Positions 1-52,357 of a stretch of DNA of 52,407 bases are shown piece after piece. The DNA is from a virus. How positions within the stretch are numbered: the stretch's first letter is position 1; every line of letters starts with the position of its first letter. A model generated the notes under the pieces. That model saw only the letters and a list, made by a program, of their open reading frames with translations. It had not been told where the DNA came from and made no database searches. The DNA is taken from the UHGV virus genome UHGV-0113213. The stretch is one strand, 5' to 3'. Both the position numbers and the translations under genes were made by a program.

Positions 1-544
1 TATCCAGCGAATCATTAAAGGGTATCCACACATCCGGCAGCGGCTGTAAAACATACGCGTAAGGCTGCGCCGTCTGATTGGCGTATTCGTGGGCTTCGTC
101 TCTGTATGTCTTAGCTGAATCGGCTGCGCTTGTCGCTGTTGTTGCAGCGTTGGTTGCAGTGGTAGCTGATTGTGATGCTAATTTTGAGGCTGAAATCACA
201 TCTTTGTTGTCGCTAAAAAATTCAACTGCGTCCGCTATTTCTGATTCTTTGCCCTGATAGTAACGCAGTGTTTCGGCTACATCCTGAGCAAGACCATCCA
301 CAGAGATCGAATCTGAAAGCAGGATACTAAATTTAGTTCCAGCCGGAATAGCAGGACTTGCCGCAGGTGTTACTGATAAACTTGTTGCGCTTTTTACCTC
401 TGTGATTGAGAAAATCTGCACCGGATTGCTAATGGCAATAAGGGTGCAACCAACCCTGATCAGAGATAATGCGGCATTGAATTCAGTCCCCGTTCCGGTA
501 ACTGTTTTTCCGCTAACGGCTATCGTGCCTGTTGTGTAAATCAT
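1..544 (-). CDS. Side tail fibre protein, N-terminal ~180 aa (gene runs off the window start)
   Basis: Minus-strand frame open from ATG at 542-544 (GGAG RBS upstream) to window edge; Ala/Thr/Ser-rich N-terminal region typical of lambdoid side fibres; located immediately downstream of J. Confidence 0.55.
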   Translation of the reverse strand, partial: MIYTTGTIAVSGKTVTGTGTEFNAALSLIRVGCTLIAISNPVQIFSITEVKSATSLSVTPAASPAIPAGTKFSILLSDSISVDGLAQDVAETLRYYQGKESEIADAVEFFSDNKDVISASKLASQSATTATNAATTATSAADSAKTYRDEAHEYANQTAQPYAYVLQPLPDVWIPFNDSLD

Positions 545-589
545 CGCAATGACTCCATTATGTTAATTAACCTGGTAATTTTACCATTT

Positions 590-721: not shown

Positions 722-970
722 ATGAAAAACATGCTCAAAGTGGTATTATTCGCTGCGGCTGTTGCTCTTACTGGTTGTGCTGTTGACAAAGATGCTGCAT
801 TGCACAACCTGCCAAATAGCGGAGTAATTCCTCAAGAAATTGTCTATGATGCTAATGGTCATCTTGTCTATGACACTGAAAAACTTCCATATACTGGTCA
901 ATGGTGTCATGAACTAGATCACAATATGCGCCGCATCGGTAGCCCGTCGAATTGTGTAGCTAACTACTAA
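722..970 (+). CDS. Small lipoprotein (82 aa), opposite-strand moron between side fibre and J; candidate superinfection-exclusion lipoprotein
   Basis: N-terminal signal peptide with lipobox LTGC (MKNMLKVVLFAAAVALTGCA); own terminator; position analogous to Cor/Llp-type lipoprotein morons near tail fibre genes. Confidence 0.65.
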   Translation: MKNMLKVVLFAAAVALTGCAVDKDAALHNLPNSGVIPQEIVYDANGHLVYDTEKLPYTGQWCHELDHNMRRIGSPSNCVANY

Positions 971-976
971 AAGAAA

Positions 977-1002
977 ACCCCGCGCAAAGCGGGGTTATTT
1001 TT
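977..1002. terminator. Bidirectional rho-independent terminator between lipoprotein moron and J
   Basis: GC stem CCCCGC...GCGGGG flanked by A-run on one side and T-run on the other. Confidence 0.7.
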
Positions 1003-4000
1003 ATGACCACGATCCAGAGCTTCTTGTGACAAGGACTAGGCCTGGTCTCCTTATTGCCGCTGATGATGTATTTGTGTAGTTTTCTGTAACAGTTACGGAA
1101 ACATGCTGAGATGTAATACCTGAAACACAATGAACGGCAACGTCTGACTTGTGGGGCGTTGATGCCGCCCTTTCTATGTCTATAGTCTTTGAATTTCCGT
1201 TAATGTTTATGGTTACGTTAATGCGTCCCGACTGGTTATATGTATAGTAAGCAAGGTTATAAGGTATCATTACATAAACCGTTTTCGATAAAGCAGATGA
1301 TGATGAATCCCAATAATTTTTGGTTACACTCCTGCTACCTGACCCTGATTGCGCAGGGAATGTTGCCTCTGGAATTACTGACATACTCGCAACGTCACCA
1401 ACAAAGGATGTAGCTTCTACAGTGCCTCTGAATTTACCGTCAGTCGCGTAAACAGTACCGTTAAACACACCAGAATTAGCGTATACCGTGCCGCGTACTG
1501 TAACGTTGTTAAATGTAGCCCAGCCATCTTTAACTATTGCCCAACCTTGATCGCTACCGTTCCAATTGTATGACGTTATGACATTGCCTATTTTTGCATT
1601 GTCGATTGAACCGTCTTTAATAAACGCTTCGCGCACATACATTGCGCCGTTAGTGACATAGAAAGGTGTCTGATATGTGCCGTTTGCGGCAGTCATTAAC
1701 ACGAATCGGTCAACAAGGAAAATGCACTGCGATTGAACATCAGTACCGCTGCCAGTGAGGCCAAGTGACATTCCTGTTGCGTATTTCATACCGTTGTTAT
1801 CAGTGGCAATCTTGATTGAATATGACGCATCAACGTTACCTTTAAAATCGGTTAACGCTTTCGATGTTGTCTCGATCGCTGTTGTGTTTCCGTTAACGGT
1901 CACTTTCAATTGATCAATTTTTGTCGATAATGCCTCATCTGCCGTTGACATGGCCTGCGACCATTCCGTGATGCTTGAGTTTACATCGTCGAAAGATGCC
2001 GATATTTGAACAAATTTTTCAGCACTTGATGCCTCGTGAGTTGCGAGCGCCGTTGATATATCTGTTATTTTTGCTGAAATGTTTTCATTAATATTGGCTT
2101 CAAGTGATGCTATAGCCTCCGCGCGGGCCTGTGTTTCGTCTGCTATTGCTGTGTCAATCCTTGCTATTTCCGCTTTTGTTTTTATCTGGCCTTTCCTGTA
2201 TTTTGCCTCAATAACGGTGCTCATCTTGCTTTGCGCTATTGAGTTGTTGATAAGTGCAATCGAGGCGTTTTGCAGACTTGCTTTCGCCTGTTCTATCTTG
2301 TCACTGTTTTTATCAACATCACTTTCAACAGAACCAAGCTCCGCACTGATGCCTGATATTGCCTGGGCGCGAGCGCTTGATTCGTCGGCGATAGCTTGAT
2401 CAAGGCGGCTAACACTGGCATTTGTGCTATTTTCAAGCGTTGTTAAATCAGCTTTAACATCTGTTATTGCGTCGCTTCTTGCCTGCGTTTCATCTGATAT
2501 TGCTTTATCGAGACGAGAAACGCTCGCGTCAGTTTTGTTTTCCAGGCTGCTGATACTGGCGTTAACGTTGCTTATAGCCTCCGTTCTAGCCTGCGTTTCG
2601 GTTGCGATTGCTTTGTCAACGCGGGCGATTTCCCCTTTGGTGCTGGAGTCCATTGCGTTCATTTCTGCTGTGATGGTTTCCAGTGATTCCGCTGTCGCTT
2701 TTTTCTCATCTGCGATAACGTTGTCGATACGGTCAATCTGTGCCTTTGTTTCGTTGCGACCTTTCTTATATTGAGCGGTAAGAGTAACCCGCGTGTTAGT
2801 TTGAGCAAGCGAGTTGTTGATCAGAGCAAGCGAAGCGTTTTGTAAACTTGCTTTTGTCTGTGCCAGTTCGTTATTAACGTTTTCGTTTGATACCTCTAAT
2901 GAGTCTATTCTTACCTCATGTTTGCCTATTCCATCGGCGTTTTCTTCGACTTTTTTATAAAGGTCTTCGGTGTCTTTTTTAAGTGTATCTGTATCAGCTT
3001 TAAGGCCATCTGTAGCTGTTTTAAGGTCGGCGGTTGCTGTTTTAAGGTCGGCGGTTGCGCTTTCTATAATATCAGTGCGATCACCAAGATCCTTAATATC
3101 ACTTACCAATTCCTTAAATTGCTCTGAGTTCATCACGTCTTTGGTGACATAGTCGCTGATTTCATCGAAGTTTTCAGTTGGCTTACCTGACGCCTCAACG
3201 AAGTCTGACACGCCAAAGGCATTGCGCGTGCGCACATAAACGTAATAAGTATGGCCCGTGTTCATTCCACCGAACGTCCACTGATACCCGCGCCCGGTAA
3301 ACTGCGCAGACGTGGTTATTTTTGCAGGATCTGTAATCTGGTTTTTCCCTGCATAGTAGAACTCATACGCTGTATCAGTTGTTAGCGTTGTTTTGCTTAT
3401 CGGGTACACTGTAGCCTGAAATACACCTGGAACCCAGTTAACGCCTATTGGCGAGGCTGGTGCACCAATAACAAGATCAACAATACTTTCAGCGCCCTTC
3501 ATGCCAGTATCATTTCTTCCGCGAACGCCTAACGAATACGCGCCAGCGTCGATGCCATAAAAATCATAACTGTATTTCGTTGTTTCGTAGCTTTTAACAA
3601 CCGCACCATCTGTGTTATATATGCGGATCTCAAAGGTCATGCGATGTGTTGTTGTCTGTGTCTCCCATGTTGCGCGGCATTGAACCGTTTCAGATCCAAT
3701 GTTTACCACCTTCAGATTTTCAATGCTCGGCACGCGGAAGTGATTAAGCGTGTCGTTGTTGATTTCAAATATAGCGCCTTCATCGACTACTGCTTGTTTG
3801 TTCGGGTCATGTTGCGCTGCTTCGATGGTGTACACGCTGTTGTTTTCAGTTTCTGCTACGCTGATGATTCGACATAAAACGGGTTTTGCAGATTCGGTTG
3901 ATACAGCAAAAACAGTACCGTTCCGAATCCATGCCGGGGCTGCTGCCAGTGTGATTTTGTTCCCGTTAACACCAGTGATCTGATGTTTTTTAAATTTGCC

Positions 4001-5578
4001 ATCGCCATCAAGTAAACTGATGGTGTCGCCTGCTGCAATGTATTCTGAATCGACTTTATCGACCGTTATCACTTTCCCATTGTTCGCCACGATACGACCG
4101 CCTAAACGCGCGCCTGCGCGGTTATTGTCGAGGATCTCGATTATATCCCCTGGCGTAAAGTGAATCGCATCACGGGCCATTTTAAACGTGAATTTTGACG
4201 GCTCGCGTTTTGCTGTTTCTATCAGCCATTTACCAGCGCGGTGCGCTTGCCCGCGTGAAGTGCACCCGAACGCCTCCAACGTGGTTTCGTTATAACCATC
4301 ACGGGCGATTAGCTCATCATCTGCCACATACTCTTTTGATTGCTCCCAGCCGTTTTCCGGGTCAGTCCATGATACAATCACGGCGTTGTAGCATTCTGCT
4401 CGGGCGATACTTGAACGAGTGAACGCACCATCAACGACGTTTGCGTTTGTGATGGTGGCGATCGGGTCTTGTGGCGCATCAATCATCACGGTAAGGCGTT
4501 GTCCGTCCCATAACGCGATGCCTCGGAACATCCCGGCGATATTGTCCAGTAAATCGCGGGCGCTCATTTGCTCTGTAATGTAAGCATTAAGCGTCATGCG
4601 AGGCTCAAGGCCACCGTAACCATCATCAACCAACTGGTCGCAGTATCGGGAGAGCGTATATAATGCGCCGTCGTCAACGTCAATATAGCCAGCATGGCGG
4701 GCAAGACCGAAACGCTCGTTTTTAACCAGGTAACGGAAGATCCACGCGGGGTTATTGGTGTACGCCTTCTTGAAGCCGCCAAGCCACAAACCGGAATAAG
4801 TGCGCGTTTCCGGGCTATAGTTATCAGGAACGTCAACAATCAGCCCGCGCAGGTGATAAGTGCGGGTAGGTGTATCAGTGTACTGATCATGATCAATAAC
4901 CGCGCCAGCTACAGCTGTGTGGGGATATGACAAATTATCGTCGATTATTTCGCTGTAACTACTCCATCTCGTATCATTCTGCAATAGATCGCTTGTGCTA
5001 TCGGCCGTTACACGGCGAACGCGAATATCAAACGGCTTTTCATCTGGTGCATTGATAATATGCGCTTCAAGATATTCTCCTCTGATCTTGCCGGGGCCTA
5101 TAGTGACATCTTTAACAAGCGTCCACGTAGAAGAAGATGAAGGCTTGACATCAATCATCATCATAACCGATGTGTTATGTTGATTGCTTTGCTCGTCAGA
5201 TTGTACAAGTGAATCGACGCCGATATTCAGGCGAACGCGCGTAACGTTAGGATCTGATACAGTCCTGATTATTGGGGTATCGTGTTTCACCTGAGCGTTA
5301 ACAATAACGGTTGATTCAATGGCGTTAAAACCGTTAATAGGTGATTGATCTAACGTGCCGTTACGCCACGCCACGCTAACACCAGGGACACTTGTATTGC
5401 CGTTCGCGTCTGTAACAGGTGTATCATTAAGCATCACGCTATTTAATGGCGCTTTTGTATTTACAGGTCCATAAATCGGACCTTCAGAAATAATATCAAG
5501 TACACGATAAAATTGTTTATGGTATAGATTATCGTTAATTAAAGTCGGTGTTTTTGCTTTACCGCCGCCGCTACTCAT
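1001..5578 (-). CDS. J: Tail tip / host specificity protein J (central tail fibre), 1525 aa
   Basis: N-terminal ~830 aa and C-terminal ~300 aa resemble lambda J as recalled (e.g. LSVIDAISEGPI-like start, NGWE, AFGCTSRGQAHRAG motifs); follows I-K-L in lambda order. Confidence 0.9.
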   Translation of the reverse strand: MSSGGGKAKTPTLINDNLYHKQFYRVLDIISEGPIYGPVNTKAPLNSVMLNDTPVTDANGNTSVPGVSVAWRNGTLDQSPINGFNAIESTVIVNAQVKHDTPIIRTVSDPNVTRVRLNIGVDSLVQSDEQSNQHNTSVMMMIDVKPSSSSTWTLVKDVTIGPGKIRGEYLEAHIINAPDEKPFDIRVRRVTADSTSDLLQNDTRWSSYSEIIDDNLSYPHTAVAGAVIDHDQYTDTPTRTYHLRGLIVDVPDNYSPETRTYSGLWLGGFKKAYTNNPAWIFRYLVKNERFGLARHAGYIDVDDGALYTLSRYCDQLVDDGYGGLEPRMTLNAYITEQMSARDLLDNIAGMFRGIALWDGQRLTVMIDAPQDPIATITNANVVDGAFTRSSIARAECYNAVIVSWTDPENGWEQSKEYVADDELIARDGYNETTLEAFGCTSRGQAHRAGKWLIETAKREPSKFTFKMARDAIHFTPGDIIEILDNNRAGARLGGRIVANNGKVITVDKVDSEYIAAGDTISLLDGDGKFKKHQITGVNGNKITLAAAPAWIRNGTVFAVSTESAKPVLCRIISVAETENNSVYTIEAAQHDPNKQAVVDEGAIFEINNDTLNHFRVPSIENLKVVNIGSETVQCRATWETQTTTHRMTFEIRIYNTDGAVVKSYETTKYSYDFYGIDAGAYSLGVRGRNDTGMKGAESIVDLVIGAPASPIGVNWVPGVFQATVYPISKTTLTTDTAYEFYYAGKNQITDPAKITTSAQFTGRGYQWTFGGMNTGHTYYVYVRTRNAFGVSDFVEASGKPTENFDEISDYVTKDVMNSEQFKELVSDIKDLGDRTDIIESATADLKTATADLKTATDGLKADTDTLKKDTEDLYKKVEENADGIGKHEVRIDSLEVSNENVNNELAQTKASLQNASLALINNSLAQTNTRVTLTAQYKKGRNETKAQIDRIDNVIADEKKATAESLETITAEMNAMDSSTKGEIARVDKAIATETQARTEAISNVNASISSLENKTDASVSRLDKAISDETQARSDAITDVKADLTTLENSTNASVSRLDQAIADESSARAQAISGISAELGSVESDVDKNSDKIEQAKASLQNASIALINNSIAQSKMSTVIEAKYRKGQIKTKAEIARIDTAIADETQARAEAIASLEANINENISAKITDISTALATHEASSAEKFVQISASFDDVNSSITEWSQAMSTADEALSTKIDQLKVTVNGNTTAIETTSKALTDFKGNVDASYSIKIATDNNGMKYATGMSLGLTGSGTDVQSQCIFLVDRFVLMTAANGTYQTPFYVTNGAMYVREAFIKDGSIDNAKIGNVITSYNWNGSDQGWAIVKDGWATFNNVTVRGTVYANSGVFNGTVYATDGKFRGTVEATSFVGDVASMSVIPEATFPAQSGSGSRSVTKNYWDSSSSALSKTVYVMIPYNLAYYTYNQSGRINVTININGNSKTIDIERAASTPHKSDVAVHCVSGITSQHVSVTVTENYTNTSSAAIRRPGLVLVTRSSGSWS
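2080..3080. repeat. In-frame tandem repeat region inside J (approx 100-bp units plus short 21-bp direct repeats) encoding coiled-coil heptad-like repeats
   Basis: Repeated DNA units e.g. GCCTGCGTTTC.TC.G.TATTGCTTT at ~2130, 2480, 2590; protein repeats ETQAR..AI and TATADLKTATADLK; internal duplication ASLQNAS(L/I)ALINNS(L/I)AQ. Confidence 0.5.
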
Positions 5579-5592
5579 GGTTAATTCTCCTG

Positions 5593-6123
5593 TTAACTTA
5601 CAACGTCTAAGGCGTCTTTATTGTTTGTTGTGTCTATGCCTAACGATCCGACGTTTGAACCTACTTTCATTTCTCCTAATAGGATTGGCACTGGTCTACC
5701 CTGTCCTACCCTGTTTTCTATGCTGGTGTAAGTGTTATTAGTTATGGTGTTATCCTGCGCGCTTTCTGATGATGTTTTTACCTTCATGTTGCGAGACATA
5801 AAAATAGAAAAAGCGACGCTGACAACTGATATACCAATCATAATCCAGCCAATCACACCAATACCTGCAATACCACCTTCAACTATTGGCGCAATAATTA
5901 CCGTAGTTCCATCTGGATATTTGCTATTAACAGCCGCTGGCGCGGTCTTTTCGTTGTAATCTTTCCCGGCAATTCGTAAGCGCAAAGGTGTATTTAAAAA
6001 CGCCTTTTTAAATTCCTGATTCTGCGCGGTCAATAAGCGAAGCCCTTGCGCTGGCGTTTCAACGTTTAAACACACTTTGCTGTAATATCTTCGAAGATTG
6101 CCCGTAAATCTAAATTTGAGCAT
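5593..6123 (-). CDS. I: Tail assembly protein I
   Basis: 176 aa with C-terminal hydrophobic Gly-rich segment and conserved end (ILLGEMKVGSNV) like lambda I; between K and J. Confidence 0.75.
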   Translation of the reverse strand: MLKFRFTGNLRRYYSKVCLNVETPAQGLRLLTAQNQEFKKAFLNTPLRLRIAGKDYNEKTAPAAVNSKYPDGTTVIIAPIVEGGIAGIGVIGWIMIGISVVSVAFSIFMSRNMKVKTSSESAQDNTITNNTYTSIENRVGQGRPVPILLGEMKVGSNVGSLGIDTTNNKDALDVVS

Positions 6124-6797
6124 TTATCAGATCTCCATATTGAATGCGTTTGTCGAACATAAGCAGGCCGCATTTGCTCGCGGCGGCTTAATAATCCGGC
6201 ATGGTCATGATGCAAAACCGTGTTATCACCCAGGTAAATCATTGCGTGACACGGGTCAGCGCCTTTGAATGGCTGGCGAATGATCACATCACCAGGCTGT
6301 ATGCTTTGCGCATCAACCTGATAAAACCCGTTCAATGGCAGGTTTTTTAAATACAGGTTTTCACCGCGAAGCCACCAGCCATCAAGGCGCTCGAAGTCAG
6401 GCAGATCTACACCGCAAAGGTGATATGCGTCGCGGAAAAGCGCGTAACAGTCTGTCGTTCCGTGTACGAATTTACGGCCTAGCAGGTGCGCAACCGGACG
6501 GAATTTCCTGATCTTGCCGCCGGAATATAAAAACCAGGGTAGCCCGGAAATAACCTGTTGCTGTCGATCCCGCGCTGACAATACAGGAATATCACCAACG
6601 TGGGAGTGGAAAACGGCGGTTATAACGCCCAATTCGTCCGCCTTGATGTAATCGTCCGGCGAAATCTTGAAGCTGTTGTAAGGCGTTTCAGACACGTTAG
6701 CGCACGGGTAAAAATACTCGTTATCTATTACAAGTCCGCAAACTTCCTCAAACGGATGCGCGGCGGCATAACGCGACATTTTGTCTTCCATCCCCAT
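6066..6797 (-). CDS. K: Tail assembly protein K (MPN/JAMM plus NlpC/P60-like domains)
   Basis: Motifs HSHVGD (JAMM-like) and Cys-containing NlpC/P60-like C-terminus; start moved to ATG at 6795-6797, 2 nt after L stop; overlaps I start as in lambda. Confidence 0.8.
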   Translation of the reverse strand: MGMEDKMSRYAAAHPFEEVCGLVIDNEYFYPCANVSETPYNSFKISPDDYIKADELGVITAVFHSHVGDIPVLSARDRQQQVISGLPWFLYSGGKIRKFRPVAHLLGRKFVHGTTDCYALFRDAYHLCGVDLPDFERLDGWWLRGENLYLKNLPLNGFYQVDAQSIQPGDVIIRQPFKGADPCHAMIYLGDNTVLHHDHAGLLSRREQMRPAYVRQTHSIWRSDKCSNLDLRAIFEDITAKCV

Positions 6798-6799
6798 GA

Positions 6800-7504
6800 T
6801 TAACCTACCTTGCTGGAACCAGGGAAACAGGAGATCGGCAGTGCTGCCGGACGCGGGAAACGCAAACGGCAACCGCTAAGGCGGTGGCTGCATTTGTCTA
6901 ACGTTGGGTCACTTGTTGGTGTATCTTTATCAGTTGCGACCGGGCCGCCAGAATACATGCACCCGTCGCCTCTGTATTGCCACTGACAAACGTCAGCAAG
7001 GATGGTGCGCCCTGGGATAACGGCTTTATCTGCATCAATTGGCGTTGACAATTCATATTGCACCTGATCCGCTGTTTCTTCGCTCATTGCTTCAACGACG
7101 TAAAAAGATACAGCCTCAATAGATGGATCTGCGTCTGGATTGCCGTTAGGGAAGTTAACGGCGTCCAGGTATTTAACCTCCACCTGGCGGCGCGTAACCT
7201 TCATGCCTCTTAGGTCGTTGAAATCGTTATTCATCCCCGTAATGAGTCCGCCGATGTTGGCTACAACCATTTGAGGGCGCGAATAAACGCCTTCGTTTTT
7301 CATTTCGAAGCCAGTAGCCTCGATCGGGTAGCTGTTGTAAGCCACACCCTTCCAGATAACCGGGCCGTAATAGCCATTCGCGCCGGAATGGAAGCGGATA
7401 ACCTCGCCACCCAGGGGCGTGAGGTCTAATTCAAACAAGTCAATTACCGCGCCGACTCCGGCATCGACGGAATCAATAATCATTTCTCTCGGAATATTGC
7501 GCAT
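6800..7504 (-). CDS. L: Minor tail protein L
   Basis: 234 aa; similarity to lambda L as recalled (VTGM, VRRKV, RFLDAVNF-like, FPGR, C-x-W-x-YRGD-C, CSKxLSGC motifs). Confidence 0.85.
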   Translation of the reverse strand: MRNIPREMIIDSVDAGVGAVIDLFELDLTPLGGEVIRFHSGANGYYGPVIWKGVAYNSYPIEATGFEMKNEGVYSRPQMVVANIGGLITGMNNDFNDLRGMKVTRRQVEVKYLDAVNFPNGNPDADPSIEAVSFYVVEAMSEETADQVQYELSTPIDADKAVIPGRTILADVCQWQYRGDGCMYSGGPVATDKDTPTSDPTLDKCSHRLSGCRLRFPRPAALPISCFPGSSKVG

Positions 7505-19145: not shown

Positions 19146-20077
19146 TCTTCGCCATATTTAGCGTGCGCAACTTTATAGTTTTCTTGCGCCCGATCTAATA
19201 TTCGTTCGTTTAATATGTTACCGTCTTCGTCAACTAATACGGTAATCGTGCTACATTTGCAGTTAATTGAATTAGGGGATCTACTCCACCATTCGCGCTG
19301 CTCATCTATGGTGTATGTTTTACCGTGCCGCTGCGCGTGCGATAGCCTGGTAGTCGGTGATAATGCCGAAATGTGCATTTGCATAGTGCGCAGATTAAAT
19401 TCTTCTGTCGCCGCTTCTGCCTCATCCATACGCGCTGTGCGTAACGCTGTGCATATTTCAGTTCGAGCAATACGTTTACACCTGTATAGCGGTAATTGCG
19501 TCTCCTGATTCAATGTGCGCGCTATTTCCAGTGGGTTTAAACCACGGGCCATGCCTTCAGTTAATCGCCGGGCCATATCCTTTTTGATCTGTGCGGTCAG
19601 CCCGCGCATTTCCTCAAATACACGGGTACGGACCAGAGCAAGGCGTGTTCGGTAAGTTGTACTGGATAACACGGCAGATACATCGGGATAAACGCTTGAG
19701 TACGTGACAGACTGGTTAGCAAGGTTGGCGTATTCCTGTGCCGTGCCTCGCAGATACGCGACCTTCACGTATTCCTGCCAGAACCAAAAACTTTCCGGGT
19801 CGGTTAGCTCGAATATCTCATCAATCATGTCGCTGGCGTCCTCCAGCATGTCGTGCAATTCATCCATGTAAATCTGGAAGGTATATTTCTTATTAACAGC
19901 CAGGCTATATTGTATTTTGTCCAGTATGGCGATATATGGATCGGCTACTTTTTTCAGGCAGGATTTGAAACGCTTAATAGCGCCAGACCTCAACCTCCCT
20001 GTCATGGTCGGGTCTTCGGTGTTAGATGGCATTATCGCGGCTGGAGGTATTCGCCTGATTATTTTCTTCACCTTCAT
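19136..20077 (-). CDS. Head morphogenesis protein (SPP1 gp7 / Mu F-like minor head protein)
   Basis: 313 aa directly downstream of portal; start codon uncertain (alternatives at 20032, 20005). Confidence 0.6.
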   Translation of the reverse strand: MKVKKIIRRIPPAAIMPSNTEDPTMTGRLRSGAIKRFKSCLKKVADPYIAILDKIQYSLAVNKKYTFQIYMDELHDMLEDASDMIDEIFELTDPESFWFWQEYVKVAYLRGTAQEYANLANQSVTYSSVYPDVSAVLSSTTYRTRLALVRTRVFEEMRGLTAQIKKDMARRLTEGMARGLNPLEIARTLNQETQLPLYRCKRIARTEICTALRTARMDEAEAATEEFNLRTMQMHISALSPTTRLSHAQRHGKTYTIDEQREWWSRSPNSINCKCSTITVLVDEDGNILNERILDRAQENYKVAHAKYGEDWE

Positions 20078-50973: not shown

Positions 50974-51203
50974 TGGATAAAACAGGGACAATCCTTCTTA
51001 GTCGCCCTGCCATCTGCCGGATGCTTGGTGGAATTAGCAGGGGAACATTTTATTTATGGCGTAAAAAATGGGAACGGAACGGAACTCCGTTCCCCGACCC
51101 GGTTGATGTACTTGGTAACGGTCGTGGCGTTATGTACCGCTATCAGGACGTAATGCAGTTCTTTGATCAGATTGGTTTAACGTCAGCCAAAGATAATACA
51201 TAA
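50973..51203 (+). CDS. xis: Excisionase / AlpA-like HTH regulator
   Basis: 76 aa with HTH-like segment (ICRMLGGISRGTFYLWRKK), adjacent to and convergent with integrase. Confidence 0.55.
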   Translation: MDKTGTILLSRPAICRMLGGISRGTFYLWRKKWERNGTPFPDPVDVLGNGRGVMYRYQDVMQFFDQIGLTSAKDNT

Positions 51204-52357
51204 TCAGCAAACTTATTTAGCGCCTCCTTTTGTTCGTCAAGATAATCGTATTTATCGTACACCGCCAGTATTCCCCTTAATGAATGGCCTAAGATCTTTT
51301 CCGCAATATGTACCGGAACACCTATAGCTGAAAGGTGTGTCCGGCACGTCCTGCGGAGGTCGTGACAGGACCATGATTTACCGCCCATCCTTTTACGCAC
51401 GAAGATTGCGGCTACTTTTATCACCGATGCGTTTACTGGCCTGTTACCGCCGTTAATCACTGGCGGGAACACGTAATCATACTCATGGGAGGATAACACC
51501 TCCCTGAGCATTTTTATCGACAAATCTGATAATCCCCGCCTGATTTCACTTCTTGTCTTCGCCACCGCTGCCGGGACGGTCCACACCCCGTTATCCAGGT
51601 CGAGGTGCTCCCTTCTCATTTTCTGCAACTCCCCCACCCTGCACCCGGTGAGCAATAATAGCTTTAATGCTATCTTGTTCTGACGGTAGATCTGCGAATC
51701 ATCCACCGTTCGCCAGAAATGGCCTATTTCATCGCATGATAAATAACGCTCGCCAACCGCATAATTTTCGCCAACGTCAATAACCCTGATATTGTTTATC
51801 GCTGTACTGGTCATTAGCCCGCGCCTGATAGCGCTGTTCACAACAATCTTCATTCGCTTAAGTATCAGTCCCGCCGTAACCGCGTGGCCCGCCGCAGTGA
51901 TCTCGCCGAATATGTCCATCCATTGTTTCGTACTGACATCATCGGCAATATACTCACCGAATTTATCGACAACATGGCGCTTAAGCGCGCTCCTGACGTC
52001 ATTATATGCAACCAGCTTAATAACGTTCGGCAGGGATAAATAGTCACTCACAATGGCGCTTATTGTTAATTTGCCACGCTCAATACTTATCGCTTGCTTT
52101 ACTGAAACGGTTGGATTCTTCCCCTTCGCTAATAGTTCTTTGTATTCTGCCACCGCGTGGCGTGCATCTTTCAACGTCATGCTGCCGTAATCGCCGATCT
52201 TCATCCTTACAGGCTTACCGTTGAACCTGTACCGGAACTGGAAAATAATTTTCCCTTTCGGGCTTATCCTGGCAGACAAGCCATCGCGATCTGCTATCTC
52301 GTTCGGGCCGTCATATGGCTTGTTTGCTATTGCGCGTAATTTCGTATCCGTCAGCAT
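51167..52357 (-). CDS. int: Tyrosine integrase (P4-like family)
   Basis: N-terminal arm-binding-type region; C-terminal catalytic residues in HDLRRT and LGHS...Y context; 396 aa at prophage end. Confidence 0.9.
   Translation of the reverse strand: MLTDTKLRAIANKPYDGPNEIADRDGLSARISPKGKIIFQFRYRFNGKPVRMKIGDYGSMTLKDARHAVAEYKELLAKGKNPTVSVKQAISIERGKLTISAIVSDYLSLPNVIKLVAYNDVRSALKRHVVDKFGEYIADDVSTKQWMDIFGEITAAGHAVTAGLILKRMKIVVNSAIRRGLMTSTAINNIRVIDVGENYAVGERYLSCDEIGHFWRTVDDSQIYRQNKIALKLLLLTGCRVGELQKMRREHLDLDNGVWTVPAAVAKTRSEIRRGLSDLSIKMLREVLSSHEYDYVFPPVINGGNRPVNASVIKVAAIFVRKRMGGKSWSCHDLRRTCRTHLSAIGVPVHIAEKILGHSLRGILAVYDKYDYLDEQKEALNKFADYVLSLADVKPI

Follow-up and report, generated by a model that had tools for sequence, protein, structure and literature searches.

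A repeat-built shaft of variable length in the J tail-tip protein of an mEp021-like coliphage

The UHGV virus genome UHGV-0113213, a single stretch of 52,407 nucleotides that is called the window below, carries a gene for a J-type tail-tip protein (1001–5578, minus strand). Its product of 1525 residues exceeds lambda J, which has 1132 residues in the PDB, by 393 residues. These extra residues are almost certainly a helical expansion of the J shaft, built from repeats, and among related phages the length of this shaft changes in steps of 7 and 36 residues, uncoupled from the type of receptor-binding domain attached to it. An enlarged, repeat-bearing J is an expected and already noted feature of an mEp021-like phage, since a 2025 study of the mEpimmI group described J proteins that differ in size and hold 'repeats of different length (positions 950-1,475)' (PMC11893012). 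That study left the structure of the units, their periodicity and quantisation aside; new here are the anatomy of the modules, their strict quantisation, the uncoupling from receptor type, and the finding that every unit matches a motif described for fold-switching fibres.

The J gene and the modules of its shaft

The lambda J chain 8iyk matched the window protein with an E value of 5e-192 in a search of PDB sequences, and PHROGs labelled it 'central tail fiber J' (PHROG 31). Its domains follow the lambda-type order, with a hub and a series of FNIII and Ig domains followed by a tail-tip beta-prism (Phage_Tail_Tip) that is homologous to the central straight fibre (CSF) of lambda; in lambda gpJ itself the order is FNIII-2, alpha-helical shaft (AHS, 809–861), CSF/beta-prism and receptor-binding domain (PMC11101478). 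HMMER paired J 1–847 with lambda J 1–854 and J 1229–1413 with lambda 839–1011, leaving ~381 residues of the window protein without a lambda counterpart. This agrees with an earlier reading of the DNA made from its letters alone (the sequence-only reading), which had given the same two protein lengths and counted ~370 additional residues. The Pfam scan returned no domain for J 812–1233, and no PDB sequence matched beyond J 1413. With 758.8 bits against a cut-off of 1950, the protein missed the NCBIfam model for full-length lambda J (NF049904); judged by its sequence, it is classed as a homologue of lambda J and not as a lambda-J equivalog. Three minus-strand open reading frames (ORFs) lie directly upstream (5593–6123, 6066–6872 and 6800–7504), with matching genes annotated L, K and I in relatives, which gives J the position it has in lambda-type phages; the K-like product bears NlpC/P60.

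We defined the shaft as the region from the end of the second Ig domain to the first tail-tip strand. The features of the gene, with positions in the J protein where applicable, are the following.

1001–5578, minus strand: gene J, tip attachment or central tail fibre protein, 1525 residues (ORF, Pfam, PHROG 31 and lambda J match in the PDB)
J 88–214: FNIII-A_GpJ (Pfam, above cut-off)
J 335–492: Phage-tail_3 (Pfam, above cut-off)
J 609–707: Ig_J (Pfam, above cut-off)
J 709–811: Ig_J_second (Pfam, above cut-off)
1838–3175, minus strand, J 802–1247: expanded, predicted alpha-helical shaft, between Ig_J_second and the tail-tip beta-prism
2948–3073, minus strand, J ~836–877: zone of 7-residue repeats (DIIESAT, ADLKTAT, ADLKTAT, DGLKADT, DTLKKDT, EDLYKKV)
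3015–3058, minus strand: perfect 21-nucleotide tandem repeat, 2.1 copies with 100% matches (Tandem Repeats Finder), encoding ADLKTAT twice
2645–2866, minus strand, J 905–978: first copy of the duplicated block, made of a head, KASLQNASLALINNSLAQTNTRVTLTAQYKKGR, and one degenerate 36-residue unit
2321–2644, minus strand, J 979–1086: three tandem 36-residue units, with anchors spaced by exactly 36 residues
2075–2296, minus strand, J 1095–1168: second copy of the duplicated block, including the fifth 36-residue unit (BLASTP against the first copy)
1838–2074, minus strand, J 1169–1247: distal shaft leading into the beta-prism, highly conserved in relatives
1466–1879, minus strand, J 1234–1371: Phage_Tail_Tip beta-prism domain (Pfam, E 1e-38), paired with lambda J 839–1011
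1001–1465, minus strand, J ~1372–1525: C-terminal receptor-binding region (clustering of the last 140 residues)

At ~420–445 residues, against 53 in lambda, the shaft of the window protein is about eight-fold longer. It starts with a stretch that pairs with the upper helix of the lambda AHS (whose first ~45 residues align to the window shaft) and continues through six 7-residue repeats, a 74-residue block, three 36-residue units and a second copy of the block into the distal stretch. Its three module types are therefore the 7-residue repeats, the block, present twice, and the 36-residue units, and the combination found in the window is two perfect heptads, two blocks and five units in a shaft of 446 residues.

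This anatomy modifies the sequence-only reading, which had described a coiled-coil insertion of heptad-like repeats at 2080–3080 with matching tandem repeats in the DNA. Repeats do lie in that interval, but the whole shaft extends beyond it on both sides; the region is repeat-built and almost certainly helical, but it is better called an expansion of lambda's alpha-helical shaft than an insertion. True 7-residue repeats occur only at ~J 836–877, whereas the dominant period is 36 residues and the hydrophobic period 3.6. At the DNA level only the 21-nucleotide unit is a close tandem repeat, with a degenerate array beside it at 2987–3026 (Tandem Repeats Finder); the 36-residue units form a family (D1) with a spacing of 108 nucleotides whose 69-nucleotide cores have diverged to 61–77% identity. 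The strings quoted in that reading are all present in J at the places given for them, namely TATADLKTATADLK at J 841–854 (nucleotides 3017–3058), ASLQNASLALINNSLAQ at J 910–926 (2801–2851), ASLQNASIALINNSIAQ at J 1100–1116 (2231–2281), and ETQAR..AI at J 993, 1029 and 1147. Its internal duplication of ~65 residues was likewise recovered, as the two copies of the block, which share 53% identity over 70 aligned residues (BLASTP, E 2e-24) and lie 190 residues (570 nucleotides; DNA family D2) apart. Their nucleotide identity of only 60% indicates that the duplication is old. The head of the first block copy is near-invariant in 43 aligned relatives, whereas the 36-residue units vary.

The 36-residue units have the consensus TDASVSRLDQAIADETSARxxAISGVNASISxLDxK. 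In 37 distinct units, Leu, Ile or Val occupies positions 5, 8, 12, 23, 26 and 30 without exception, and position 33 is hydrophobic in 92%; Glu15 and Arg19, which stand four residues apart in the core line, are invariant (37/37). With Thr1, these residues make up ten core positions per 36 residues.

Two plus-strand ORFs, 2079–2399 and 2424–2774 (106 and 116 residues), lie antisense to J and wholly within its repeat region. Their products are rich in Leu, Ile, Ala and Ser, as expected for the reverse complement of codons rich in Ala, Ser, Asp and Glu; we judged them to be composition artefacts and probably not genes.

Length variation among related phages

The window represents a temperate coliphage of the mEpimmI (mEp021-like) group. 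Its positions 20000–44000 are covered to 72–85% by mEpimmI phages at ~87–89% identity (megablast), and its J gene matches those of seven such phages, mEp010, mEp013, mEp021, mEp044, mEp515, mEp554 and MagusPhagus. The J proteins of these seven are 72–83% identical to that of the window and alike in domain order and in the three module types, with annotated lengths of 1393, 1478, 1504, 1707, 1727, 1828 and 1828 residues. A protein search returned the identical 1525-residue J on four contigs from several sources, together with 120 close relatives of 1482–1935 residues, and versions of the 1525-residue J occur in Escherichia coli genomes. Overall, J ranges from 1393 to 1935 residues.

Parsing of 119 close-relative J proteins gave shafts of 400–855 residues with 4–15 units. 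The zone of 7-residue repeats measured 63, 70, 77, 84, 91, 105 or 119 residues, that is, multiples of 7 in all 119 relatives, and the remainder of the shaft followed 340 + 36k residues in 108 of the 119, with a regression slope of 35.9 residues per unit. Unit anchors are exactly 36 residues apart in the window and in all seven cultured relatives. Individual steps can be read from close pairs: a relative with 94% identity (P0006) equals the window J minus one heptad and minus one in-register 36-residue unit, with the junction in the shared ETQAR, and in three near-identical genomes with otherwise identical flanks the 21-nucleotide unit GCAACCGCCGACCTTAAAACA is present once (L010), twice (the window) and three times (L008). 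The second 74-residue block is also variable, MagusPhagus and mEp515 having one block each. Repeat-driven variation in length, as the sequence-only reading had proposed, is thus borne out.

Variation in shaft length is uncoupled from the type of receptor-binding domain. When the last 140 residues were clustered, a single receptor-binding cluster of 96 of the 119 proteins, which included the window, spanned the full range of shafts from 400 to 855 residues, and smaller C-terminal clusters with more than one shaft length also combined short and long shafts. The receptor-binding type of the window is shared with MagusPhagus and is distinct from both the LamB-type and the OmpA-type ends found in the characterised mEp phages, of which mEp021 and mEp515 require OmpA while mEp010, mEp013, mEp044 and mEp554 require LamB (PMC11893012). 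Phages with the same receptor differ by more than 300 residues in the shaft, both for OmpA (mEp021, 769 residues; mEp515, 435) and for LamB (mEp044, 769; mEp013, 446), so receptor choice follows the C-terminus and not the repeats. We therefore rejected the suggestion that the repeats tune host range through receptor choice; that they tune the geometry of the tip, as suggested alongside it, is a reasonable supposition.

Two further observations concern the relatives. In mEp515 (L003, 1942–2508) and mEp021 (L005, 2442–3008), a 188-residue gene lies directly upstream of J and overlaps its start; it is annotated as hypothetical in the former and as a putative HNH endonuclease in the latter, and is absent from the window and the other relatives. 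Longer J relatives (P0032–P0120) carry precomputed hits to PF28217, PF27241 and sometimes PF06705, which the window J lacks; PF28217 and PF27241 possibly describe the repeat region.

Predicted helical character of the shaft and alternative readings

The composition and periodicity of the shaft are those of a helix. It contains no proline in 443 residues, and its hydrophobicity spectrum peaks at 3.6 residues, reaching about ten times background inside the 36-residue units, with no period-2 signal. A canonical heptad coiled coil, with a 3.5-residue period throughout, was not observed, given the 3.6-residue period of the units; a period of this length, giving ten core positions in every 36 residues, would suit a bundle that is almost straight and contains stutters. 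AlphaFold2 (AF2) was run on J 795–1300 as a monomer, once with a multiple sequence alignment (MSA) of 43 sequences and once with the single sequence, and predicted helix at J 804–1222 and J 803–1248, respectively, near-continuous up to the strands of the tip domain. Per-residue confidence (pLDDT) of the 36-residue units was 65–83 with the MSA and dropped to ~40, its lowest, in the region of the first block. With a length that varies and a helix that is predicted, the region does not resemble the invariant stretch of ordinary beta-structure that the sequence-only reading had named as evidence against itself.

Similarity searches point in the same direction. The shaft has weak matches to two coiled-coil families, SMC and SF-assemblin, and to designed helical repeat proteins, and J 1134–1264 aligns to residues 967–1096 of the F2-pyocin central fibre (phmmer, E 7e-10), a stretch that may lie wholly or only partly within the modelled shaft of that fibre. 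The F2 fibre's alpha-helical shaft is, in the solved structure, a three-stranded coiled coil (PMC13455828). A helix predicted, at low confidence, after the last FNIII domain and ahead of the beta-prism, combined with this similarity, groups the region with the alpha-helical shafts of J-like central fibres. J 1094–1233 also aligns to residues 848–980 of T1 gp33 (E 3e-10).

Known systems resemble the window J to different degrees. The lambda AHS has the same position but only 53 residues, compared with ~445, and no tandem modules; we know of no length polymorphism in it. It is a bundle of three helices and acts as a clamp on the FNIII trimer; when LamB binds, it is reshaped, in part into beta sheet (PMC11101478). 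F-type pyocin central fibres (F2 PyoF10, PDB 25vf; F7 central fibre protein) share J-like hub domains (E 3.5e-129) and, as is predicted for the window J, have a long three-stranded coiled-coil shaft before the beta-prism. Unlike the window J, they have their receptor-binding domain on separate proteins and act in Pseudomonas, and an array of 36-residue units is not reported for them. T1 gp33 (PDB 9l9p_S) is J-like and, at 1172 residues, longer than lambda J, with IADETQAR-type repeats at 848–980, but its repeats are fewer and set in another unit context, and it lacks the duplicated block. The C-terminal part of gp33, flexible and unresolved, is predicted to form a ~370 Å fibre (PMC11945409).

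The unit itself is more widespread. An exhaustive profile search placed it in 58 representative protein clusters; a homologue search by indexed words, given only the shaft, returned 15 proteins, mostly fragments. Arrays of the form ...AIADExxAR... with periods of 33, 35, 36, 37, 40, 42 or 47 residues occur in P0137, P0139, P0141–P0151 and others; P0137, a fibre of 1922 residues with 13–16 units, is the only distant unit protein that Pfam confirmed as J-like. A protein with a YadA anchor (P0138, 1834 residues) bears ~12 tandem 18-residue half-units, EVSRLDTAISDEKTKREQ, at ~1470–1700 (E 3.6e-29 to the unit profile). YadA-family adhesins are trimeric rods with coiled-coil stalks whose length varies by repeat number. 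They are bacterial surface proteins and not phage proteins, and the likeness is one of coiled-coil motif, which is no evidence of common descent; by sequence, the same motif appears to serve both a bacterial adhesin-type protein and phage central fibres.

On this evidence we consider it likely that the window shaft is a repeat-expanded, trimeric coiled-coil version of the lambda J alpha-helical shaft, acting as a spacer and signal transmitter. The extra residues occupy the position of the lambda AHS between FNIII-2 and the beta-prism. In the virion, three J chains would most likely join there in an extended three-stranded coiled coil, ~60 nm long if continuous; we infer that the rod is trimeric throughout and continuous across the blocks, and likewise its physical length and its role. 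Such a rod would set the beta-prism and receptor-binding domain at a distance from the tail-tip cone and, by transmitting the binding signal, couple receptor binding to tip opening. With 3.6 residues to a turn, each 36-residue unit would make ten turns of helix. The perfect 21-nucleotide repeat would change its copy number by slippage and the 108-nucleotide units theirs by in-register recombination, and these changes would generate the ladder of shaft lengths in the mEpimmI lineage, independent of the receptor-binding domain attached.

Several observations weigh against this reading. The AF2 models are monomers of low confidence (mean pLDDT 56 and 62, predicted TM score, pTM, ~0.25), with helix breaks or low-confidence stretches at or near both duplicated blocks, and instead of extending straight over 60 nm, the rod may have kinks or fold back on itself. 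P0139, a distant relative of the unit, has Gly-Pro in every 36-residue linker, which makes a continuous helix hard to reconcile with that protein. Finally, the published description of the mEpimmI group by transmission electron microscopy (TEM) speaks only of '~130 nm tails', with no word of a long tip fibre (PMC11893012).

A further possibility, which would add a function to a coiled-coil shaft rather than exclude one, is that the coiled coil is metastable and refolds into a beta-prism after receptor binding, each unit making one hairpin, so that the number of units sets the stroke and the stored energy. According to a 2026 preprint, the central fibre of the F7 pyocin has a 163-residue coiled-coil shaft that refolds into a beta-prism on cell contact, a change needed for killing; the preprint proposes that the coiled coil stores energy which this refolding releases (PMC12874032). 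Each strand of this fibre bears an SxSxxMxxLxS motif that reverses its direction along with the strand, its coiled-coil core holds Glu-Arg pairs at i+4 (Glu1039/Arg1043), and its first 20–60 residues form a non-switching spine (PMC12874032). With strict residue classes, this motif occurred 18 times in the window shaft against 5.2 ± 2.2 in composition-preserving shuffles, none of 5000 reaching 18. It sits at fixed places in the units, forward at position 18 in 37/37 and reverse at position 3 in 34/37, an alternation that antiparallel strands would need, and is absent from the first ~110 shaft residues (J 802–914), as from the F7 spine; the invariant E15/R19 pair parallels Glu1039/Arg1043. Beta strands follow directly after the helix in the AF2 models, as 'seed' strands would, the distal shaft resembles an F-pyocin central fibre in sequence, the short lambda shaft itself partly turns to beta sheet on LamB binding (PMC11101478), and switching is predicted in 21 of 24 siphophage central fibres (PMC12874032), those named in the preprint being HK639, mEp390, TLS and Shlf1. 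A unit that is ten turns or one hairpin would also explain why whole units only are gained and lost. Our own geometric estimate is that such a change would reduce the part with motifs from ~50 nm to ~9 nm in length, pulling the tip to the membrane and opening it. The motif test was, however, defined post hoc, after the sequence had been seen; the shuffles do not control for helical amphipathicity, and internal repeats are not independent observations. The unit profile scored poorly against F2 fibre residues 967–1096 (hhalign probability 5.6%, E 0.007), and motifs 15 and 21 residues apart in the units, compared with ~27 residues per strand in F7, mean that the prism geometry would need to differ. 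The scale differs as well, the F7 switch segment having 163 residues and 5–6 strands and the window ~340 motif-bearing residues and ~18 motif copies. The source is moreover a preprint, and states that lambda and T5 show no extensive switch (PMC12874032). A multi-unit fold switch is plausible, by sequence and by analogy, although on balance we lean against it.

The same motif evidence would fit units that are already a static beta-prism in the virion, an extended form of the central straight fibre of lambda to which repeats add hairpin layers. Of comparable central-fibre regions, 30% were predicted as a beta-prism by AlphaFold3 (PMC12874032), and the Gly-Pro linkers of distant relatives and the silence of the TEM description on a long thin tip fibre would suit such a structure. 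We think it improbable, with helix in both AF2 runs and the best confidence exactly on the units, a hydrophobic period of 3.6 with no period-2 signal, no proline, and a unit profile that also matches a protein with a YadA-type membrane-anchor domain. Another reading assigns the role to the duplicated block (KASLQNAS..TNTRVTLTAQYKKGR), as a kink or docking site for side fibres, the duplication adding a second tier and the units spacing the sites. It draws on the near-invariance of the first block head next to variable units, on the breaks in the predicted helix and the minima of pLDDT in or close to both blocks, on the F2 pyocin, in which side fibres join the shaft at a kink (PMC13455828), on the suggestion that non-coiled-coil interruptions may be side-fibre attachment sites (PMC12874032), and on a side-fibre gene that adjoins J in every relative, its N-terminus lying at 1–545 in the window. 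MagusPhagus and mEp515, with one block each, nevertheless have side-fibre genes of 1160 and 449 residues, side fibres of lambda-like phages normally attach elsewhere on the tip, and side-fibre gene length did not co-vary with shaft length in the seven relatives; we regard docking as unlikely, if a shade less so than a static prism. Least probable by far is an origin of the repeat architecture in mis-assembly, to which repeats are prone, or in neutral, unconstrained expansion, for which the uncoupling of shaft length from receptor type could be cited. We rejected an assembly artefact on the strength of the identical protein on four contigs of independent sources and its versions in E. coli genomes, and isolate genomes and cultured phages share the architecture. 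All variation is in frame and in register, by 7 or 36 residues, with invariant core positions, which is the signature of structural constraint.

Flanking genes and significance

The neighbours of J are as follows. An 82-residue lipoprotein gene (722–970, plus strand) runs on the strand opposite to J and adjoins its 3' end; the lipoprotein has a signal peptide with the lipobox LTGC, its position is kept in 7/7 relatives, and it is probably the Lpp superinfection-exclusion protein described for mEpimmI phages. At 1–545 (minus strand) the window encodes the N-terminal portion of a side tail fibre protein (MIYTTGTIAVSGKTVTGTG...), whose gene, truncated where the window starts, is a homologue of the one downstream of J in MagusPhagus; an integrase-like ORF (51167–52357, minus strand) lies at the other end. 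The window looks like a prophage-ordered contig broken inside the side-fibre gene.

Non-contractile phage tails penetrate the cell envelope although no source of energy is obvious, and how they manage this is a standing question. The window and its relatives provide a naturally graded series of shafts, in clean 36-residue steps and with the same or different receptor-binding domains, which is convenient for testing the idea of stored-energy refolding and also for work in which the length of fibres in phages or tailocins is engineered. If the shaft does switch fold, the mEpimmI J proteins would be a natural ladder of 4–15 quanta on interchangeable receptor-binding domains and by far the longest fold-switch springs known, with up to ~650 motif-bearing residues compared with 163 in F7. 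The number of units would then set the stroke, over tens of nanometres, and the energy for envelope penetration, and the OmpA-type pair mEp515 and mEp021, with shafts of 435 and 769 residues, would allow a direct test of how a non-contractile tail is powered.

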